A stretch of DNA of 64,000 nt from positions 6,966-70,965 of the forward strand of contig JAZRRE010000030.1 of the NCBI GenBank assembly GCA_045650505.1, read 5' to 3'. The notes under the pieces were generated by a model that ran no database searches, was not told the DNA's origin, and saw only the letters and a list, made by a program, of their open reading frames with translations. This DNA is from Clostridia bacterium (GTDB taxonomy: Bacteria; Bacillota; Clostridia; Christensenellales; UBA1242). Of this stretch, positions 49,647 to 58,154 are shown piece after piece. Made by a program: the position numbers and the translations under genes. The number at the start of each line of letters is the position of its first letter. Positions within the stretch are counted from its first letter, which is position 1.

Positions 49647-52562
49647 TTAGTCAAATCTACCAACTTTTTCATTTTTGATGTTAGTATTTGTTTTAGCAGT
49701 AATGTTTTTACCTGATTCATTCCATGTTACAGTAACTCTTGTTGCAGTGCAACTTGTGCAAGAAGCAACATTGTCTAAACAACCAATTAATTGACCTGCA
49801 TCTCTGTCAGCATCAACTGTGCAATCTGTTGCTTTGCAACCAGAAATTGAAGCAGTTGCAGAAGCATTGTTTGTTCTAGCAAATTGTCCAACAATGATAC
49901 CAACTTTATCACCAGATTCATCAGCATCTAAATATACACAACTTGCAGAAGCATTTTTAACTTCTGCTTTTGAAATGTTTGAGTTAAGTGAGAAACCAAC
50001 AACAACACCAACATAGTGGTTGCCATCAACTTCAGCACCATTAACTTTAACATTCTTAATTTCAGCAGAAACAATGTGACCAAATAAACCAACACCTGTT
50101 GCAGCATTTGCGTTAGCAGCACCACCAACAAAAGTTGTTACCTTAAGGTTATAAACTGTTTTGCCATTACCATCAAATGTTCCACGGAAAGAAGCACCAA
50201 ATTGAATAACTTCAGAGAAGTTGCTGTAACCATAGCCGATTGGAGTCCATTCAATGTTGTCTAAATCAATATCTTTAGCAAGTTTGATTGTGTAACCATC
50301 AAATGTGTTGCCAGCATTAACTGCTGCAGCAAATGCTGCAAATTCATCAGCTGTGTTGATTGTGATTACATTATTAACAGCGGTTGGAAGAGTTCCAACT
50401 GTTCCTTTCCATAAACTGATTGTTGCAGAATCTCTACCAAGAACTTCGTTCTTAATATTTTCACCTGTGCTTGTTCCGTTTGCAGAAACAAGAACAGCTA
50501 CAGCAGAAACATTTCTTAAAGTTGTTGAACCTGCAGCGCAACCTACAACTTGACCAGCATCTCTTCCTGCTTTTACTCTTGAAGAACTAGCAGAAATTCC
50601 ATTTGCATTAACGTGTGCAGCATAACCAATAAGAGCACCCGCTTTGTCGCCATCTTCATCTTCATTGAAGTGTGTGCAATTAATTGTTGCATTCACAACT
50701 GAACAATTTTCAACTGTTGTTTTTGATGCCCAACCAATAAGAGCACCAACAAAGTGGTTACCATCAACTCTTGCACTATCAATTTTTACATTTTTGATAA
50801 CTGCTGGATCGTTTGTGCAACCAAATAAACCAACACCTTTTGCTGCTTTAGCTGCAGGAGCACCACCAATAAAGTTTGTGATTTTAAGATTTGAAATTGT
50901 AAAATTCTTTCCATCAAATGTTCCAGCAAAATAGTGTGTGGTTGTGTTTGCACCAGAACCATAACCAATTGGTGTCCATTCAATGTTGTTTAAATCAATA
51001 TCATTTGCAAGTTCAATAGTTTTTCCAGCAAATGTGTTGCCTTCGTTAACAGCTTTTGCAAAAGCAGCAAGTTCATTAGCTGTTGAAATAACAATTACAT
51101 TTTCTGTTACTTCAGCAGGAAGTTCACCTGTTCTGCCAAGCCATAAATCTTTGCCTAAAACTCTTCTATTTGCACCACATTCGTTGCAAGAACTATCACT
51201 ATCATTTGAATATGTGTGATTGTGATATGCTTCAGCGTTTTCAAAACTCATTGCACTGTAACCACTAGCACTTTCTAAAATTGCATCATCAACAATATTA
51301 ACAAATGCATAACTGATTCTGTCAGCAGCATTTTTATATGTGCTGAATTCTTCAATAGCGTGTTTTGATTTACTAACAAATCTGCCACCAGAAATATCAA
51401 CTGTTAAAGCCTTTTGATAACCAGCAGCTGGAACTGTGTTATAACCAACACATGAATCAACGATTAAAGCAGAACCTGTTGGATAGAATCCACTTCCATT
51501 ATGGTCTTTTTCAAAAGTATCATCACCAACTGCTTTTACTGTGCAGTTTGTGAAGTAATGGTGACCACTCTTTGCATAATAACCTGTGAAACCTTCAAAA
51601 TAACAATTTTCATAAGAATAAATAACTTTTCCTGAAGCTAAATATACACCAGCAGAAACATCATCATAAGTTGGACCTACAACTTTTGTTCCAATAAATT
51701 TGCAATCTTTAGCGTTAACAGTTGTGCTACTTGAATAGTTTCCGTTTGAAGCAAGAGAACCCCAATAACCTTTAAATGTTACATTTTCGAAATCAATATC
51801 ATAAATATTGTTTGTTTTAAGAACAACTGTGTAATCGGTTTCATTGTTAGCAAAACCAACAATTGATTCAGCATTTGATGAGTTGAAAATTGAAAGTTTA
51901 ACAGTTTTGTCTGTTGTGAATGTTCCATTTGGTTTTTGAGTTCCAAGACCATAATAAGCACCTGAAACAGGGAATTGAGAAAGGTCACTTGCAATCAAGA
52001 TATATGAATTGATGTCATAACCATTAAGGTCGATTGCAATATCTTTGTCTTCATCTTTTGGGAAGATAAGAACTGGAGCAACCTTATTTCCGTTTGTTGT
52101 GTCTCTAACCATTTCGATATTGCCATCAAGTGTAATCACATGGTTTTTGTCAGTCACTTGAATTGCACTGTTGAGTGCAGCAAAATTTTTAACCGAAATT
52201 GGTGCTCTTTTAATTTCGAATGTTGTTGTGAATTCGAGATTAGCAGCAAGCACATCACTATCTGCGTTAGACTTAACAACAACTGTTGCAATACCTGCAT
52301 CAACATTGTTAAGATATTCAACAGTATAGTTATCACTTGTGACAATTTCATCATCATAAGTTAAAGTTACTGATGGTTCTTTTTCTGTGCCATCATAAAC
52401 AGTGCTTTCATAAGCAAGTGTAATGTTTTCTGATGCCATTGTGCTTTGCTTTGTTGCTTCATTTGATGGGTCTTTTTCACCATTGTCACAAGCAGCTAAA
52501 GAAAATGCCATTGGAAAAATCATACAAATTGCTACGAATAGACTTAAGATTTTCTTTTTCAT
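49647..52562 (-). CDS. large surface lipoprotein: MBG-like (YDG) domain, beta-helix region, two tandem GLUG-like modules
   Basis: Lipobox FSLAAC after a signal peptide. TVYDGTEKEPSV near the N-terminus. Two ~245-aa internal repeats. Confidence 0.7.
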   Translation of the reverse strand: MKKKILSLFVAICMIFPMAFSLAACDNGEKDPSNEATKQSTMASENITLAYESTVYDGTEKEPSVTLTYDDEIVTSDNYTVEYLNNVDAGIATVVVKSNADSDVLAANLEFTTTFEIKRAPISVKNFAALNSAIQVTDKNHVITLDGNIEMVRDTTNGNKVAPVLIFPKDEDKDIAIDLNGYDINSYILIASDLSQFPVSGAYYGLGTQKPNGTFTTDKTVKLSIFNSSNAESIVGFANNETDYTVVLKTNNIYDIDFENVTFKGYWGSLASNGNYSSSTTVNAKDCKFIGTKVVGPTYDDVSAGVYLASGKVIYSYENCYFEGFTGYYAKSGHHYFTNCTVKAVGDDTFEKDHNGSGFYPTGSALIVDSCVGYNTVPAAGYQKALTVDISGGRFVSKSKHAIEEFSTYKNAADRISYAFVNIVDDAILESASGYSAMSFENAEAYHNHTYSNDSDSSCNECGANRRVLGKDLWLGRTGELPAEVTENVIVISTANELAAFAKAVNEGNTFAGKTIELANDIDLNNIEWTPIGYGSGANTTTHYFAGTFDGKNFTISNLKITNFIGGAPAAKAAKGVGLFGCTNDPAVIKNVKIDSARVDGNHFVGALIGWASKTTVENCSVVNATINCTHFNEDEDGDKAGALIGYAAHVNANGISASSSRVKAGRDAGQVVGCAAGSTTLRNVSAVAVLVSANGTSTGENIKNEVLGRDSATISLWKGTVGTLPTAVNNVITINTADEFAAFAAAVNAGNTFDGYTIKLAKDIDLDNIEWTPIGYGYSNFSEVIQFGASFRGTFDGNGKTVYNLKVTTFVGGAANANAATGVGLFGHIVSAEIKNVKVNGAEVDGNHYVGVVVGFSLNSNISKAEVKNASASCVYLDADESGDKVGIIVGQFARTNNASATASISGCKATDCTVDADRDAGQLIGCLDNVASCTSCTATRVTVTWNESGKNITAKTNTNIKNEKVGRFD
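49650..51146 (-). repeat. in-frame tandem duplication inside the lipoprotein gene (unit A 50415-51146, unit B 49650-50414)
   Basis: Unit A: LWLGRTGELPAEV..NELAAFAKAVNEGNTFAGKTIELANDIDLNNIEWTPIGYG ... IKNEVLGRD. Unit B: LWKGTVGTLPTAV..DEFAAFAAAVNAGNTFDGYTIKLAKDIDLDNIEWTPIGYG ... IKNEKVGRFD. Confidence 0.8.
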
Positions 52563-52700: not shown

Positions 52701-52729
52701 ATTATACCCCCTTAAAAAAATGATGTCAA
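52701..52729 (-). promoter_or_regulatory. consensus sigma-A promoter of the lipoprotein gene
   Basis: Minus strand TTGACA (52729-52724), 17 nt, TATAAT (52706-52701). Phased A-tracts (52742-52790) lie upstream of the -35. Confidence 0.65.
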
Positions 52730-52921
52730 CCCCCATTTTTGAATTTTATTTTTATTTTTTTTCGTATTTTTTCGACATTTTTCGACACTTGAAATTATCA
52801 GCATTTACACGCTTTATATAAATATATATTATAATGTAAAGTATATTTTAAATCATTAATATAACACACCATAAATTTTAAGGTGGTTTTAACCCCTTCA
52901 AAAAGAAAAATTAATAAAAGG

Positions 52922-52950
52922 TTGACAGTTATGAAATAATATGTTATAAT
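52922..52950 (+). promoter_or_regulatory. consensus sigma-A promoter of the aspS-gatCAB leader
   Basis: TTGACA (52922-52927), 17 nt, TATAAT (52945-52950). Confidence 0.7.
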
Positions 52951-52995
52951 AGTGGCAGTTTAGAGATAAACTAACTAAAAAAAGGAATATATGCA

Positions 52996-53052
52996 ATGAT
53001 TAGAATTATCGATAATAATAACAATAATAATTGCGTAAGCGTCACAAAATAG
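52996..53052 (+). CDS. candidate leader peptide MIRIIDNNNNNNCVSVTK (six consecutive Asn codons)
   Basis: Not in the ORF track. SD AGGA (52983-52986) lies 9 nt before the ATG. Asn codons AAT AAT AAC AAT AAT AAT at 53014-53031, TAG at 53050-53052. Confidence 0.55.
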   Translation: MIRIIDNNNNNNCVSVTK

Positions 53053-53104
53053 TGGGGTTCCTTTTATATTGTTAGTTAACAGATAATTAAAGAAAAAGTT
53101 GATT

Positions 53105-53140
53105 AGCGAAGTGGAAATCCCACTTCGCTTTATTTTTTGC
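53105..53140 (+). terminator. intrinsic terminator (attenuator) between the leader ORF and aspS
   Basis: 10-bp stem AGCGAAGTGG (53105-53114) / CCACTTCGCT (53120-53129), 5-nt loop, then TTATTTTTT. Confidence 0.75.
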
Positions 53141-53165
53141 ACAAAATATTTTAAGGAGAATAGCT

Positions 53166-53225
53166 ATGGTTTATAAACTCGGTAATGCCCTAGCAGGCGA
53201 ATATATAATGACAGACGCCAGATAG
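53166..53225 (+). CDS. candidate 19-aa micro-ORF MVYKLGNALAGEYIMTDAR
   Basis: Strong SD AAGGAG (53153-53158) lies 7 nt before the ATG. The TAG sits in the loop of hairpin GACGCC/GGCGTC (53214-53231). Confidence 0.3.
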   Translation: MVYKLGNALAGEYIMTDAR

Positions 53226-53336
53226 GGCGTCATAAATCAAATAAACACAATCAAAACATACTAAAAATTAAACAACAAACTAAATCGTTTGATTTTTGAA
53301 AACAAAATAAATAAACTTAAAATGGAGAAATGTATT

Positions 53337-54635
53337 ATGAAAACAGAAATTAAGAGTATTGAACTCGAAAAAGAATGTGAAATCTCTGGTTTTATTGAAA
53401 CCACAAGAGAACAAAAAACAATGTTATTTATCGTGCTTCGTGACAGAAGCGGCAAAATTCAAGTGGCTATTGAAAAAGCAAAAATGCCAGAAGTTGCAGC
53501 AAAAGTTGCAAGTCTTTTAAAAGACAGCGTTATTCGTGTTAAAGGTCACGCTGTTTCTGCACCAAACGTAACACTTGGTGGAATCGAGTTTGTTCCAAGT
53601 GAAATTGAAATTGAAAGTGAAGCAGAAAACCTTCCTATCACTGCAGAAAGTTCAATCGACCTTCGTCAAGACTATCGTTGGATTGACCTTCGTGATGAAA
53701 AACGCAGACACATTTTTGAAATCCGTTCATTTGTTGAATCAAAAATGAGAGAGTTCTTTGTGTCTAAAGGTTTCATTGAAATCCACACACCAAAAATCTC
53801 TGCACAATGCAGTGAAGGTGGCGCAGAAGTGTTTGGCATTGACTATTATGGTCAAAAAGCATACCTCACACAAAGCCCACAATTCTATAAACAAATGGCT
53901 ATTGCTTCAGGTTTTGAAAAAGTTTTTGAAATCGGTGCACAATATAGAGCAGAAAAATCTTTCACAGCAAGACACGCAGCAGAAAGCGTTGCCCTTGACT
54001 TTGAAATTGCTGATGTTAAATCACACCACGAAGTTTGTGACACAGAAGAAGAAATGCTTGTCTTTGTGCTTAAAGCAATCAAAGAAAAATATGGTGATTT
54101 AATCGAAAAAGAATTTGGCGTTCCTGTTTTAGTTCCAACAGGCAGAGTTCCAAGATTCAAACTTAAAGAAGTTTTTGAAATTTTTGAAAAAGAATACGGA
54201 ATCAAAACACCAGAAGCTAAAAAGCTTGACCTTGACCCAGATGCTGAAAAACTTATCTGCAAATATGCAGCAGAAAAACTTGGCAGCGAACTTGTGTTCA
54301 TCACTGACTACCCTGCTGAAGCTCGTGCATTCTATTCAAAGAAAGTGAGTGAAGACTCGCTTGATTGTATGTCACTTGACCTTCTCTATCGTGGTTGGGA
54401 AATGAACAGTGGCGCTGTTCGTGAACACAGATATGAAGTTCTTAAAAAACAAATTGAAGAAAAAGGAATCAAAGCAGACCTTATGGCTGACTACCTTGAA
54501 TTCTTCAAATATGGTTGCCCTCCACATGGTGGAATCGGTCTTGGAATCGACAGATTTGTTGCTAAACTTCTTGACCTTCCTAGCATAAAAGAAAGCATTT
54601 TAGTTTTCCGTGGTCCAAGCAGACTTAAACCATAA
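53337..54635 (+). CDS. aspS: aspartyl-tRNA synthetase, archaeal/type-2 form (probably non-discriminating)
   Basis: LTQSPQFYKQ and QYRAEKSFTARHAAE (motif 2), GGIGLGIDRF (motif 3), C-terminal FRGPSRLKP. I prefer ATG 53337 (SD GGAGA 8 nt upstream) over the TTG at 53289. gatCAB follows. Confidence 0.85.
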   Translation: MKTEIKSIELEKECEISGFIETTREQKTMLFIVLRDRSGKIQVAIEKAKMPEVAAKVASLLKDSVIRVKGHAVSAPNVTLGGIEFVPSEIEIESEAENLPITAESSIDLRQDYRWIDLRDEKRRHIFEIRSFVESKMREFFVSKGFIEIHTPKISAQCSEGGAEVFGIDYYGQKAYLTQSPQFYKQMAIASGFEKVFEIGAQYRAEKSFTARHAAESVALDFEIADVKSHHEVCDTEEEMLVFVLKAIKEKYGDLIEKEFGVPVLVPTGRVPRFKLKEVFEIFEKEYGIKTPEAKKLDLDPDAEKLICKYAAEKLGSELVFITDYPAEARAFYSKKVSEDSLDCMSLDLLYRGWEMNSGAVREHRYEVLKKQIEEKGIKADLMADYLEFFKYGCPPHGGIGLGIDRFVAKLLDLPSIKESILVFRGPSRLKP

Positions 54636-54726
54636 AAACGCAAAATCAACTGAAAATTATATAAAAAATATATAAAAAATCGCAAAAAATATAAAAATAA
54701 TGCAAAAAAATCAAAAGGAGAGAATT

Positions 54727-54999
54727 ATGGAAGACATTGCGCATTTAGAATATTTAAGCAAACTTAAATTCGAAGACGCAGAAAGAGCAGCCTTTGAAAG
54801 CGAGTTCAAAAACATTATTTCTTTCGTTGATGAAATTGCAAATCTTGAACTTGAAGACCAACTTGATTTAGACAAGGCAATTTCAATTAGCGACTTAAGA
54901 GCAGATGAAGCGCACACTAGCATTTCGCAAGAAGAAGCACTTCAAAATGCACCAATACAAAAGGACGGATGTTATGTAACTCCGCTGGTGATTGACTAA
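54727..54999 (+). CDS. gatC: Asp/Glu-tRNA amidotransferase subunit C
   Basis: Size, position before gatA/gatB, and the LSKLKF..EE...F...I..FVDEI pattern. ATG 54727 with SD AAGGAGAG. Confidence 0.85.
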   Translation: MEDIAHLEYLSKLKFEDAERAAFESEFKNIISFVDEIANLELEDQLDLDKAISISDLRADEAHTSISQEEALQNAPIQKDGCYVTPLVID

Positions 55000-56414
55000 T
55001 GGATTATTCAAAACTTACACTTATCGAAATTAAAGAAGGCATTTTGTCAGGAAAGTTCACAAGTGAAGAAGTGACAAAACACTTCATTTCAGTTTGCGAG
55101 GCAAAAAAAGACCTCAACGCAATGATTGAAGTTTTTGATGATGCCATCAAACAAGCAAAAGCTGTTGATGAAAAAATCAAAAATAAAGAAAAGGTCGGCA
55201 AACTTGCAGGCGTGCCTATTGCAATTAAAGACAACATTTTATATAAAGGCAAACACGCAGGTTGTGCAAGCAAGTTTATGCAAGACTTTATTGCACCATA
55301 TAACGCAACCGTTGTTGAAAAACTTCTTGCTGAAGATGCAGTTATTCTTGGCAGAACTAATATGGATGAATTTGCTATGGGTGGAAGCACTGAAAAATCT
55401 TTCTATGGTGCTTGCCACAACGCACACGCATTTGACCGTGTTGCTGGTGGTTCATCTGGTGGAAGCGCTGTTGCTGTTGCTGCAGGAATGGTTCCTTGCG
55501 CACTTGGAACAGACACCGGTGGTTCAATTCGCCAACCATCATCATATAACGGCACAGTTGGAATCAAACCAACTTATGGAACAGTTTCAAGATTTGGAAT
55601 CGTTGCATTTGCATCATCACTTGACCAATGCTCACCTATCACAAAAACTGTTGAAGACCTTGAATATGTGCTTCGAATCATCGCTTCAAAAGATGAACAC
55701 GATGGCACAACAATCACCAACTTTATGGTGAGAAGCCCTAAACAAAAATATACCCTTGGCATTTGCAAAGAAATGCTTGCAAAATTCAAAACAATGCCAG
55801 GCTATAAACCATTCACAGAGGCTCTTGAAAAATTAAAATCTACTTTTGATTTTGTTGAGGTTTCAATCCCTCATATTGCAAACTCACTTGCAACATATTA
55901 CATCATTTCACCAGCCGAAGTTGCTTCAAACCTTGCAAGATTTGATGGTGTGAAATACACAAAGCGTTTCGGCTCTGCAAAAGACCTTGAAAGTGTTTAT
56001 GTTGAAAGCAGAAGCGAAGGATTTGGCAAAGAAGTTAAACGCAGAATAATGCTTGGAAACTTCGTTCTTTCAAGTGGTTATTTTGATGCATATTACAACA
56101 AAGCAAAAAAAGTTCAAAAACTTATCAAGAAAGAATTTAAGGCTGCATTTGAAAAATGTGATGCACTTATTCTTCCAACAACCACAGGTGAAGCATTCAA
56201 GATTGGTGAAAAAATGAGTGACCCTGTTTCAATGTATCTTGAAGACCTTTTCACCGTTCCTGCAAACATTTCAGGAATGCCAGCACTTGTTGTGCCTTAT
56301 GCAACCGGCGAAAACAACCTTCCTCTTGGAATGCAATTTATGGCTGATGAATGCGCAGAAGGCAACCTTTTTGATATCGCAAAAATCTTTGAATATACTA
56401 TGGAGGTGAAATAA
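54999..56414 (+). CDS. gatA: Asp/Glu-tRNA amidotransferase subunit A
   Basis: Amidase signature GGSSGGSAVAVAAG and GTDTGGSIRQP. ATG overlaps the gatC TAA. Confidence 0.95.
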   Translation: MDYSKLTLIEIKEGILSGKFTSEEVTKHFISVCEAKKDLNAMIEVFDDAIKQAKAVDEKIKNKEKVGKLAGVPIAIKDNILYKGKHAGCASKFMQDFIAPYNATVVEKLLAEDAVILGRTNMDEFAMGGSTEKSFYGACHNAHAFDRVAGGSSGGSAVAVAAGMVPCALGTDTGGSIRQPSSYNGTVGIKPTYGTVSRFGIVAFASSLDQCSPITKTVEDLEYVLRIIASKDEHDGTTITNFMVRSPKQKYTLGICKEMLAKFKTMPGYKPFTEALEKLKSTFDFVEVSIPHIANSLATYYIISPAEVASNLARFDGVKYTKRFGSAKDLESVYVESRSEGFGKEVKRRIMLGNFVLSSGYFDAYYNKAKKVQKLIKKEFKAAFEKCDALILPTTTGEAFKIGEKMSDPVSMYLEDLFTVPANISGMPALVVPYATGENNLPLGMQFMADECAEGNLFDIAKIFEYTMEVK

Positions 56415-57841
56415 TGGATTATTTAGATAACTTTGACCTTGTCATTGGTCTTGAAATCCACGCAGAACTTAACACAAACACAAAAGTTTTCTGTTCTTGC
56501 AAAAATGAATTCGGTTCACTTCCAAACACAAACACCTGCCCTGTTTGCACAGGTATGCCAGGCGCACTTCCAATTTTAAACAGACGTGCTGTTGAACTTG
56601 CAATCAAATCAGGCTTAAGCTTTGGTTCAAAAATCAACAACTATTCAGTTTTTGAAAGAAAGAATTATTTTTACCCAGATTTAAGCAAGGCTTATCAAAT
56701 CAGCCAACTTGTTTATCCACTCTGCCTTTCAGGTGGCGTTAAACTTGACAACGGAAAATTTGTTCGTTTAAACCGTATTCACCTTGAAGAAGATGCTGGA
56801 AAACTCACTCACATCAGCAAAGCTGTTGGAACATTCGTTGACTATAACCGTGGTGGAACTCCACTTATCGAAATGGTCACTGAACCAGATATTTCTTCAG
56901 CAGAAGAAGCTGTTGACTTTTTAAAGAAAGTTCGTGAAACACTTGTGTTTGAAAACATTGCTAACTGCAAAATGGAAGAAGGTGGAATGCGTTGCGACGT
57001 TAACCTTTCCTTGAAACCAAAAGGCAGCCTTGTTTATGGCACAAGAACTGAAATGAAAAACTTAAACTCATTTAAGAGTGTTCAAAGAGCCATTGAATAT
57101 GAAGCAAAACGCCAAGCAGAAGTTTTGGTTTCTGGCGGAATCATTCTTCAAGAAACCAGAAAATGGGACGACGACAAAGGCAAGAGTTCTTCAATGAGAA
57201 GCAAAGAACACGCTCAAGATTATCGTTATTTCCCAGACCCAGACCTTCTTCCAATTTCAGTATCTTATGAAGACATTTCAAAAATTAAAGAAGAAATGGT
57301 TATGCTTCCTGCAGAGCGTAGAGAAAGATATGTTAAAGAGTTTGGCATTCCTGAATACGATGCTAGCATTTTAACAACATCAAAATATATTTCAGACTAC
57401 TACGAAACTTGCGTTAAAATTTACAACAACCCTAAGAAGCTCAGCAACTGGATTATGGTTGACCTTTTAAAACTTGTTAAAGACCAAGAAGAATTTGTTT
57501 TCCCTGTAACTGAAGAACATTTAACAACAATCGTTAAAATGGTTGAAGACAGAGTGATTAACAAAACAATCGCACTTGAACTTTTAGACAAAGTTATTGA
57601 AACAAAGAAAGACCCAATGGTTCTTGCAAAAGAAATGAATCTTTTAGTTACAATCAGTGATGAAGAAATTTTGAACCTTTTGAAAAAACTCAAAGCAGAA
57701 AATGAAAAAGTTCAAGCAGACTATAAGCAAGACCCTGAAAAGATTTCAAAATTTATTATCGGCTATGTTATGAAAAACACTGCCGGCAAAGCAAATTCAG
57801 GAAAAGTTATTGCGCTTATTCCAACCGTTTTTGAAAAATAA
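56414..57841 (+). CDS. gatB: Asp/Glu-tRNA amidotransferase subunit B
   Basis: VIGLEIHAELNT..KVFCSC, NYFYPDL, IHLEEDAGK, MRSKEHAQDYRYFPDPDL. Confidence 0.95.
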   Translation: MDYLDNFDLVIGLEIHAELNTNTKVFCSCKNEFGSLPNTNTCPVCTGMPGALPILNRRAVELAIKSGLSFGSKINNYSVFERKNYFYPDLSKAYQISQLVYPLCLSGGVKLDNGKFVRLNRIHLEEDAGKLTHISKAVGTFVDYNRGGTPLIEMVTEPDISSAEEAVDFLKKVRETLVFENIANCKMEEGGMRCDVNLSLKPKGSLVYGTRTEMKNLNSFKSVQRAIEYEAKRQAEVLVSGGIILQETRKWDDDKGKSSSMRSKEHAQDYRYFPDPDLLPISVSYEDISKIKEEMVMLPAERRERYVKEFGIPEYDASILTTSKYISDYYETCVKIYNNPKKLSNWIMVDLLKLVKDQEEFVFPVTEEHLTTIVKMVEDRVINKTIALELLDKVIETKKDPMVLAKEMNLLVTISDEEILNLLKKLKAENEKVQADYKQDPEKISKFIIGYVMKNTAGKANSGKVIALIPTVFEK

Positions 57842-57859
57842 AGTTAAAGTGAGAAAGTT

Positions 57860-58114
57860 ATGGAAGAAATTAAACCAGGAATCTACAAACATTTTAAAGG
57901 CAAATTCTGTGATGTTATTTGCACAGCAAAACATTCAGACAGAGATGAAGTTTTAGTGATTTACAGAGGCGTGAACGACGGTGGTCACTTTGCAAGACCA
58001 GCCGAATCTTTTCTTGGAACAGCAACCGATAAAGATGGCAACACCGTTCCTAGATTCACCCCTGCAACAAAAGCAGAACTTGAAAGCCTTAATGAACAAG
58101 GGTTAATCAAATAA
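57860..58114 (+). CDS. DUF1653-like small protein
   Basis: GIYKHFKGKFCDV...VIYRG pattern. Last gene of the aspS-gatCAB transcription unit. Confidence 0.55.
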   Translation: MEEIKPGIYKHFKGKFCDVICTAKHSDRDEVLVIYRGVNDGGHFARPAESFLGTATDKDGNTVPRFTPATKAELESLNEQGLIK

Positions 58115-58123
58115 ACTAAACAT

Positions 58124-58154
58124 AAAAGCCACCAACAATGGTGGTTTTTATTTT
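58124..58154 (+). terminator. intrinsic terminator ending the aspS-gatCAB unit
   Basis: Stem CCACCA/TGGTGG (58129-58144) followed by a T-run. Confidence 0.7.

Follow-up and report, generated by a model that had tools for sequence, protein, structure and literature searches.

A probable asparagine-specific leader-peptide attenuator upstream of aspS-gatCAB in uncultured gut Clostridia

The classical transcription attenuators of Proteobacteria (trpL, hisL, pheL, leuL, thrL and ilvL) comprise a promoter, an open reading frame (ORF) led by a Shine-Dalgarno (SD) sequence and containing a run of cognate codons, four RNA regions that can pair as alternative helices 1:2, 2:3 and 3:4, and an intrinsic terminator; the stalled ribosome serves as the sensor of charged tRNA. 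Aminoacyl-tRNA synthetase (aaRS) genes can be controlled in the same manner, as is pheST of Escherichia coli by the pheM leader attenuator. T-box riboswitches bind uncharged tRNA directly, without translation, and read sterically whether the 3' end of the tRNA is acylated. Leader-peptide attenuators of the trp, leu and ilv type are known from Actinobacteria (PMC1262725). In bacilli, His-codon leader peptides precede a hisS paralogue/hisZ, and hisS is a documented case of a Firmicute aaRS gene on which a leader peptide has replaced a T-box (Naville & Gautheret 2010, PMC2965389). The aspS-gatCAB operon of Clostridium acetobutylicum is given as T-box controlled in a passage of PMC4206432 that cites Saad et al. 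(2012 J Biol Chem). Here we describe a locus upstream of aspS-gatCAB in a 64-kb stretch of contig JAZRRE010000030.1 (assembly GCA_045650505.1) from a Clostridia bacterium, referred to below as the window, in which a small ORF (sORF) with six consecutive Asn codons is followed by an intrinsic terminator. No Asn-codon leader peptide was found in the literature searched; a survey covering the attenuators of amino-acid operons and of aaRS operons, reportedly made by Lopatovskaya et al. in 2010, lay outside that search and might hold one.

The locus has the components of the classical attenuators listed above in common with them. It differs in the amino acid, which is Asn (sometimes mixed with Asp), in the host (uncultured gut Clostridia) and in the target, which is the tRNA-dependent route consisting of a non-discriminating AspRS and GatCAB and not free-amino-acid biosynthesis. 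There is no similarity in sequence or to the Rfam models of leader families (His_leader, Trp_leader, Leu_leader, Thr_leader, leu/phe leader and others). Control of an aaRS gene by a cognate-codon leader peptide is shared with pheST, and the occurrence of a Firmicute leader peptide where relatives have a T-box is shared with the hisS/hisZ leaders of bacilli; unlike in both of these, the amino acid is Asn, the operon is another one, and the sensed Asn-tRNA(Asn) would be the product of two co-encoded enzymes. With the Asn T-box found on aspS-gatCAB in C. acetobutylicum and in relatives analysed here, the locus has in common the operon, the position, a tRNA(Asn)-charging signal and a terminator/antiterminator output, whereas T-box features are absent from the window. 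Judging from its sequence, from folding and from comparison with related loci, we consider it very probable that the locus is an Asn-specific, classical ribosome-mediated transcription attenuator sensing Asn-tRNA(Asn). Attenuation by an Asn leader had been proposed in a sequence-only reading of the same DNA, and the proposal is now supported by 19 loci, by helix covariation and by the Asn T-box of relatives.

Table 1. Features of the leader region and of the operon downstream (positions in the window)
Feature	Coordinates	Strand	Details
Promoter	52922-52950	+	-35 TTGACA 52922-52927, 17-nt spacer, -10 TATAAT 52945-52950; 12/12 match
Shine-Dalgarno-like AGGAA	52983-52987	+	AGGA at 52983-52986; 9 nt upstream of the leader ATG
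Leader sORF	52996-53052	+	ATG 52996, 18 codons, TAG 53050-53052; peptide MIRIIDNNNNNNCVSVTK
Regulatory codons	53011-53031	+	GAT (Asp), then AAT AAT AAC AAT AAT AAT; the six Asn codons at 53014-53031
Helix 1:2 (anti-antiterminator hairpin)	53038-53059	+	53038-53045 x 53052-53059; sequesters the GUGGGGUU start of region 2
Region 2	53052-53080	+	GUGGGGUUCCUUUUAUAUUGUUAGUUAAC; bears the family-wide GGGUU(CC)UUUU motif; begins directly after the stop codon
Region 3	53098-53122	+	antiterminator partner of region 2; sequence just 5' of the terminator, terminator 5' arm, loop and top of the 3' arm
Intrinsic terminator (3:4)	53105-53138	+	10-bp stem 53105-53114 / 53120-53129 with 6 GC, loop AAATC, U-tract 53130-53138; tail TTATTTTTT
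Second upstream ORF	53153-53225	+	SD AAGGAG 53153-53158, ATG 53166, 19 codons, TAG 53223-53225; peptide MVYKLGNALAGEYIMTDAR
AAY-hairpin module	53184-53199	+	in-frame Asn codon AAT abutting the GC hairpin GCC CUAGCA GGC
Controlled operon	53337-58151	+	aspS-gatCAB, DUF1653 gene and terminator
aspS	53337-54635	+	aspartate--tRNA(Asn) ligase, NF003483, 427 bits (cutoff 353)
gatC	54700-54999	+
gatA	54999-56414	+
gatB	56414-57841	+
DUF1653 gene	57860-58114	+	19 nt after gatB, ahead of the operon terminator
Operon terminator	58122-58151	+

The window holds the sequence elements expected of a leader-peptide attenuator, namely a promoter, a ribosome-binding site and a short ORF, a cognate codon run, a terminator and mutually exclusive helices (Table 1). 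The promoter, the AGGA, the 18-codon ORF and its six Asn codons were all recovered at the positions that the sequence-only reading had given for them, and so were the 10-bp stem and the U-run of the terminator. A TG at 52942-43 provides an extended -10 element (52942-50), and transcription would be expected to start near 52957. The leader run is the sole run of five or more AAY codons on either strand of the window (33% GC), and the leader RNA folds with a z-score of -5.5 relative to 200 dinucleotide shuffles. A mini-ORF (ATG CAA TGA, 52991-52999; ATGCAATGA) overlaps the leader start codon out of frame, 4 nt from the AGGA; it is probably not used.

Related loci were fetched with the AspRS protein (80 loci amounting to 522 kb, both strands; about 419 aspS relatives in all). 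These 522 kb contain 14 AAY runs of five or more codons, and all 14 are on the coding strand, shortly ahead of aspS. An sORF with an Asn run, sometimes an Asn/Asp-mixed one, is located upstream of aspS in 19 of the 80 loci, which represent about 12 sequence clades (L001-L009, L011-L013, L015-L018, L020 and L029/L030). These 19 loci come from metagenome-assembled genomes (MAGs) of uncultured gut Clostridia, their AspRS are from 98% down to 48% identical to that of the window, and the order aspS-gatCAB is kept wherever downstream sequence is present. The sORFs are 12-29 codons long and contain runs of 5-9 Asn codons or Asn/Asp mixes. In 17 of the 19 loci the corresponding position holds a -35/-10 pair with at least 10/12 matches, and L015 also has a promoter once its sORF start is re-assigned. 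An in-frame start codon for the run exists in all 19 loci and an SD-like motif, 9-16 nt upstream of the start, in most. The only substitutions within the run are T/C at the third codon position and A-to-G at the first (Asn to Asp), and such codon-periodic substitutions are expected of translated regulatory codons. Four loci interleave the two amino acids (NNNDNNNDN in L016, NNNDNND in L017, NNDNNN in L018 and NDNDNNNDD in L020). These mixed leaders fit an AspRS that charges both tRNAs, and their composition suggests that Asp-tRNA(Asp) is sensed along with Asn-tRNA(Asn).

The pattern of variation also bears on the nature of the sensor. The run is a triplet repeat, as are TRAP sites, and the terminator/antiterminator alternatives exist whatever the sensor is, so that an oligomeric TRAP-, PyrR- or HutP-like protein binding the AAY repeats could be imagined, the sORF being incidental. 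We regard such protein-mediated attenuation as improbable. A run that shares its frame with a start codon in 19 of 19 loci, with an SD in most, and that never changes to AAA or ATA behaves as coding sequence; the short ORF ends at region 2 or a little beyond it; Asn-tRNA is what the regulated genes make, and the equivalent element of relatives is a T-box that senses tRNA(Asn) (see below); and no candidate gene for a binding protein is linked to the locus.

Outside the Asn run the leader peptides diverge (for example MFSFVTVNNNNNNNNNTLNLMGSFCVVD, MSKLFVLVNNNNNNFNTL.. and MMHVNNNDNNDF). A leader peptide responding to general translation stress or to an antibiotic, as in ermC, bmrCD or vmlR, and not specifically to Asn-tRNA(Asn), would share the overall architecture, for such systems also join an sORF, alternative hairpins and a terminator according to a portion of PMC4191407. 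We find this explanation quite unlikely, and the locus does not qualify as an antibiotic arrest-peptide leader, the msrD type included: no arrest peptide is conserved and it is the Asn/Asp run alone that persists across clades, the genes downstream are aspS-gatCAB and not resistance genes, and an Asn-specifier T-box occupies the same place in relatives.

Each sORF is associated with the RNA element GGGUU(CC)UUUU(A)UUAUUGUU and, after it, an intrinsic terminator. GGGTT and the T-rich columns next to it are invariant (alignment A1), whereas the leader outside the short helices is AT-rich and poorly conserved. The GGGUUCC element lies past the stop codon in the window and inside the ORF in other clades, where it encodes MGSF, which indicates that it is selected as RNA and not as protein. 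A metagenome scan with AATAAYAAYAAYAAYN{10,40}GGGTTYYTTT gave, among at least 120 matches listed, none near AspRS or GatCAB and none with an in-frame sORF and a terminator; these matches, considered as a wider distribution of the leader or as an Asn regulon, were all rejected as chance occurrences.

Comparative support was obtained for each of three mutually exclusive helices, 1:2, 2:3 and 3:4. The antiterminator 2:3 pairs 53053-53080 with 53098-53122 (~24 bp, -19.2 kcal/mol; the terminator hairpin has -16.2 kcal/mol). The sequence-only reading had proposed a shorter antiterminator, formed by 53051-61 (AGTGGGGTTCC) and 53113-24 (GGAAATCCCACT). These segments are indeed complementary (10-11 bp with one bulge); they turn out to be merely the apical third of the longer helix, which also takes in the terminator 5' arm. 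In 12 clade representatives, cognate duplexes between region 2 and the terminator have a mean energy of -18.1 kcal/mol, against -12.9 +/- 1.1 for permuted combinations (0 of 20 000 permutations). The best duplex of the post-run segment with the terminator is centred on the terminator loop in every locus, and the loops (GGAACCC-like in the core clade, CAAUAAAAACCC in L016) are exact complements of region 2 of their own locus. The terminators of related loci are of 14 distinct sequences, all with perfect 8-14 bp stems and T-runs (dG -10 to -19).

Helix 1:2, which RNAalifold placed in the interval from the Asn run to region 2, has the form RAC-n-CAYY / loop / RRUG-G-GUU. It adjoins the Asn run on the 3' side, and a ribosome stalling at the last Asn codons could reach its 5' strand, which starts with the last Asn codon in several clades. 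Pairing is possible in 93.5% of cells of a 16-locus alignment (A2), in comparison with 26-46% for slid partners; compensatory changes occur in 3 pairs, and the covariation score is 0.32 versus 0.165 for shuffled alignments (0 of 500). Both comparative checks that had been suggested for the attenuator, conservation of the Asn run in orthologous upstream regions and covariation in the helices, are in its favour: run and frame recur in 19 loci, 1:2 has compensatory changes and 2:3 has the excess of cognate over permuted pairing just given.

Another helix, enclosing the SD (52969-88 x 53057-77), had been put forward as the third one. It does appear in the minimum free energy (MFE) fold of the window; however, the best-supported competitor for region 2 is the hairpin 53038-45 x 53052-59. 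A corresponding SD:UCCUUU helix is predicted in the MFE folds of about 8 of the 19 loci. Because both of its strands are conserved for other reasons, covariation cannot test it, and it is possibly an extra sequestering helix at most. When no ribosome is present, a further predicted partner of region 2 is the Asn run (AACAAUAA:UUAUUGUU), a pairing for which covariation is uninformative.

The stretch from promoter to terminator might alternatively be an independent gene for a small RNA or a small protein, with aspS transcribed from a promoter of its own. A weak promoter-like match (10/12) is indeed present at 53296-53323, and in the core clade ~200 nt and a second ORF separate the terminator from aspS; however, transcription from the 53296 site would start downstream of the aspS SD, and in the distant clade the terminator ends just 16-47 nt before the aspS start. 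Moreover, the unit always lies directly upstream of aspS-gatCAB on the same strand and is absent elsewhere in 586 kb, its peptide is not conserved outside the Asn run, and co-variation between region 2 and the terminator would serve no purpose in a stand-alone gene. We attach very little weight to this possibility.

As a ribosome-mediated attenuator, the locus is proposed to work in the following manner. (i) The strong constitutive promoter would give rise to a ~180-nt leader RNA, and a ribosome would translate the 18-codon sORF behind the polymerase. (ii) When Asn-tRNA(Asn) is plentiful, the ribosome would reach the stop codon, where it would mask region 1 together with the GUGGGGUUCC beginning of region 2 (region 2 starts directly after the stop codon and so would lie under a terminating ribosome) or, if the ribosome has already gone, hairpin 1:2 would re-form; in either case region 2 would be barred from downstream pairing, 3:4 would form and transcription would end near 53138. 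(iii) When Asn-tRNA(Asn) is scarce, the ribosome would stall in the Asn run, its front edge keeping 53038-45 open and leaving region 2 free, so that 53053-80 would pair with 53098-122 as the terminator emerges; the terminator would not form and polymerase would read through into aspS-gatCAB. (iv) The ribosome would report the finished, amidated product only and would in this way integrate both enzymatic steps of the operon. EF-Tu rejects Asp-tRNA(Asn), as stated in a part of PMC1904265, and a translating ribosome can by this means tell Asp-tRNA(Asn) from Asn-tRNA(Asn). A T-box, with its steric read-out of the 3' end, cannot make this distinction. Given this rejection, and given that a T-box reads acylation only, the leader would sense the amidated end product and the T-box would not.

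The effect of ribosome position was analysed by folding transcripts truncated before the terminator 3' arm, with the ribosome simulated as an assumed +/-15-nt footprint; full-length equilibrium folds were also computed. In most loci, the truncated-transcript folds with the ribosome on the Asn run have 12-20 nt of the 5' arm and loop of the terminator paired to region 2, which agrees with the earlier proposal that a ribosome stalled there leaves the antiterminator unmasked. With the ribosome on the stop codon, the pairing between region 2 and the terminator is lost or redirected in most core-clade loci. In this footprint model, the proposed masking by a ribosome at the stop codon is predicted for most of the core clade and is only partial in the window and in L016, L017 and L020.

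Several observations weigh against the attenuator interpretation. In the window, a ribosome at the stop codon still leaves 11 nt of the terminator 5' arm paired upstream, and the antiterminator is blocked no further than its apical GGGGUUC part. The distance from the stop codon to region 2 is 8-37 nt in the distant clade (L016, L017 and L020); a terminating ribosome would mask region 2 only in part in these loci, and termination would rely on 1:2 re-forming. Stalling at the first Asn codons would leave the ribosome short of region 1. The terminator stays the equilibrium MFE state in nearly all simulated ribosome states, so that the switch would have to be kinetic, as it is in classical attenuators (trp, his); equilibrium thermodynamics cannot demonstrate such a switch, hence our reliance on truncated-transcript folds and covariation. 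With regard to translation of the sORF, the SD spacing mentioned above (9-16 nt) is long in several loci, and the sORF of L018 (2850-2931; MIFEINNDNNNLFNTL) lacks an SD, its start being only 6 nt downstream of a perfect -10 box; it would need leaderless initiation, and the leader mRNA is probably leaderless. Finally, L010, the closest aspS-gatCAB relative to be so placed, has no visible leader in the 370 nt available upstream. Positions 1-382 of L010 are noncoding, relatively GC-rich and contain repeats, and the contig ends there; an insertion may have displaced the leader, or it may be found farther upstream.

The distribution of T-boxes among the 80 loci provides a further argument for the attenuator. 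Each aspS accompanied by gatCAB has either an Asn leader or an Asn T-box, the exceptions being L010, L074 and L080. Asn T-boxes (RF00230, 119-147 bits) with the specifier GAAAgAACA, i.e. AAC, were found in L040, L042, L046, L047, L051, L053 and L059; the T-box of L050 is a sequence-motif match alone, in a locus cut just after aspS. RF00230 matches in relatives range overall from 93 to 149 bits. The Asn T-box stands at the same position as the leader, and both Asn sensors are confined to aspS-gatCAB operons or to loci truncated right after aspS. An aspS without gatCAB has neither of them; some such genes have a GAC (Asp) T-box and some stand behind another T-box-led gene. The presence of an Asn-specifier T-box in the same place on the same operon argues for its functional equivalence with the leader. 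In the MAG RGIG4256, aspS alone (L055, 2688-2907) is found with a GAC T-box and aspS-gatCAB (L029/L030; L029 2821-2950) with an Asn leader. A single genome appears to have both sensor types, with Asp and Asn control divided between them, subject to the caveat of MAG binning. In a rough neighbour-joining tree of AspRS, the leader loci form the core clade and a second group beside the Asn-T-box clade. Since the 1:2 hairpin and the GGGUU motif are common to the two groups, their leaders are homologous, and T-box and leader were exchanged at least once.

These data also count against a translation-independent riboswitch, either T-box-like in binding tRNA or a metabolite aptamer, which we judge extremely unlikely even though aaRS genes of Bacillota, including relatives of the window operon, are usually T-box controlled: RF00230 has no match in the window and the T-box sequence (AGGGUGGNACCGCG) is absent upstream of every leader-bearing locus, no Rfam family (leader families included) matches the window at gathering thresholds, a search of 52880-53345 up to E = 10 gave no relevant match for the leader or the ORF that follows it, and the leader has the AT-rich, poorly conserved background described above.

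The attenuator proper is followed in the core clade, and only there, by a second upstream ORF (uORF), which the sequence-only reading had not mentioned. It was found in 13 of 13 core-clade loci, where it comprises 15-35 codons, has a strong SD and starts 25-70 nt after the terminator stem. Its sole conserved feature is an Asn codon together with a hairpin (Table 1). In relatives this module takes the form AAY-GCCC-n4-6-GGGC-R, with variable loops and flanking peptide and with C-G, U-G or U-A as the outer pair; L007 has three tandem 30-nt copies. In 586 kb the module motif occurs in these leaders only, plus one match in L021 that was rejected as chance (it is inside a gene, on the opposite strand). 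Two possible functions were discarded: sequestration of the aspS SD by the uORF hairpin, which is seen in L003 only and is inconsistent across loci, and frameshifting or alternative-frame reading of AAUGCCC, which is not conserved, the AAC variants having no +1 AUG. No consistent pairing partner of the module and no consistent effect on the aspS ribosome-binding site were found in the core-clade loci. In the window and L001 only, a perfect 6-bp GC hairpin (GACGCC-agatag-GGCGTC, 53214-53231) extends over the second uORF's stop codon; the GGCG of the hairpin upstream could be an alternative partner for its GACGCC arm.

We tentatively suggest, as a possibility that is on balance doubtful, a two-tier sensor of Asn-tRNA(Asn), in which the attenuator would monitor the amidated end product and the second uORF would be a post-termination module. 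In the second tier, a ribosome pausing at the Asn codon of the second uORF would alter the fate of the mRNA, for example by shielding it from 5'-to-3' decay or from Rho, or by remodelling the spacer before aspS. This spacer (53232-53295, from the second uORF towards aspS) contains C and is almost G-free (cataaatcaaataaacacaatcaaaacatactaaaaattaaacaacaaac), and L001 and L007 are alike in this respect. With such a rut-like composition, a Rho-dependent layer of control is conceivable.

The operon downstream encodes, as the sequence-only reading had stated, an archaeal-type AspRS and GatCAB; the assignment is confirmed by the NF003483 match and by the presence of gatC, gatA and gatB, and only the start of aspS had to be corrected, from 53338 to 53337. 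The AspRS (432 aa) has the short, archaeal-type architecture and is non-discriminating. The DUF1653 gene appears from its position to be co-transcribed with aspS-gatCAB. Neither AsnRS, AsnA nor a second AspRS paralogue is encoded within the 64-kb window, the rest of the genome being outside that scope. On the other side of the leader, a second perfect TTGACA-17-TATAAT promoter (52701-52729, minus strand) faces away from it, toward an ORF at 49647-52562 (minus strand) whose 971-aa product has no Pfam or NCBIfam match. Between both divergent promoters, 52758-52787 consists of three tandem ~10-nt repeats (TTTTTCGTA / TTTTTCGACA / TTTTTCGACA), which could be a candidate regulator-binding site.

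If the attenuator interpretation is true, asparagine would join the short list of amino acids sensed by leader-peptide attenuation, and a leader-peptide attenuator would be placed in Clostridia, where T-boxes dominate the control of aaRS genes. The locus and its relatives would be a natural example of the interchange of T-box and leader peptide on one operon in neighbouring AspRS lineages, and the inability of the T-box to monitor the amidated product may be the reason for its exchange with the leader. This raises a testable question, namely whether a ribosome-based sensor, unlike a T-box, separates Asp-tRNA(Asn) from Asn-tRNA(Asn) and thus regulates the amidotransferase step. For the abundant uncultured Clostridia of the gut, it would also supply a rule for annotating a conserved leader and its sORF.

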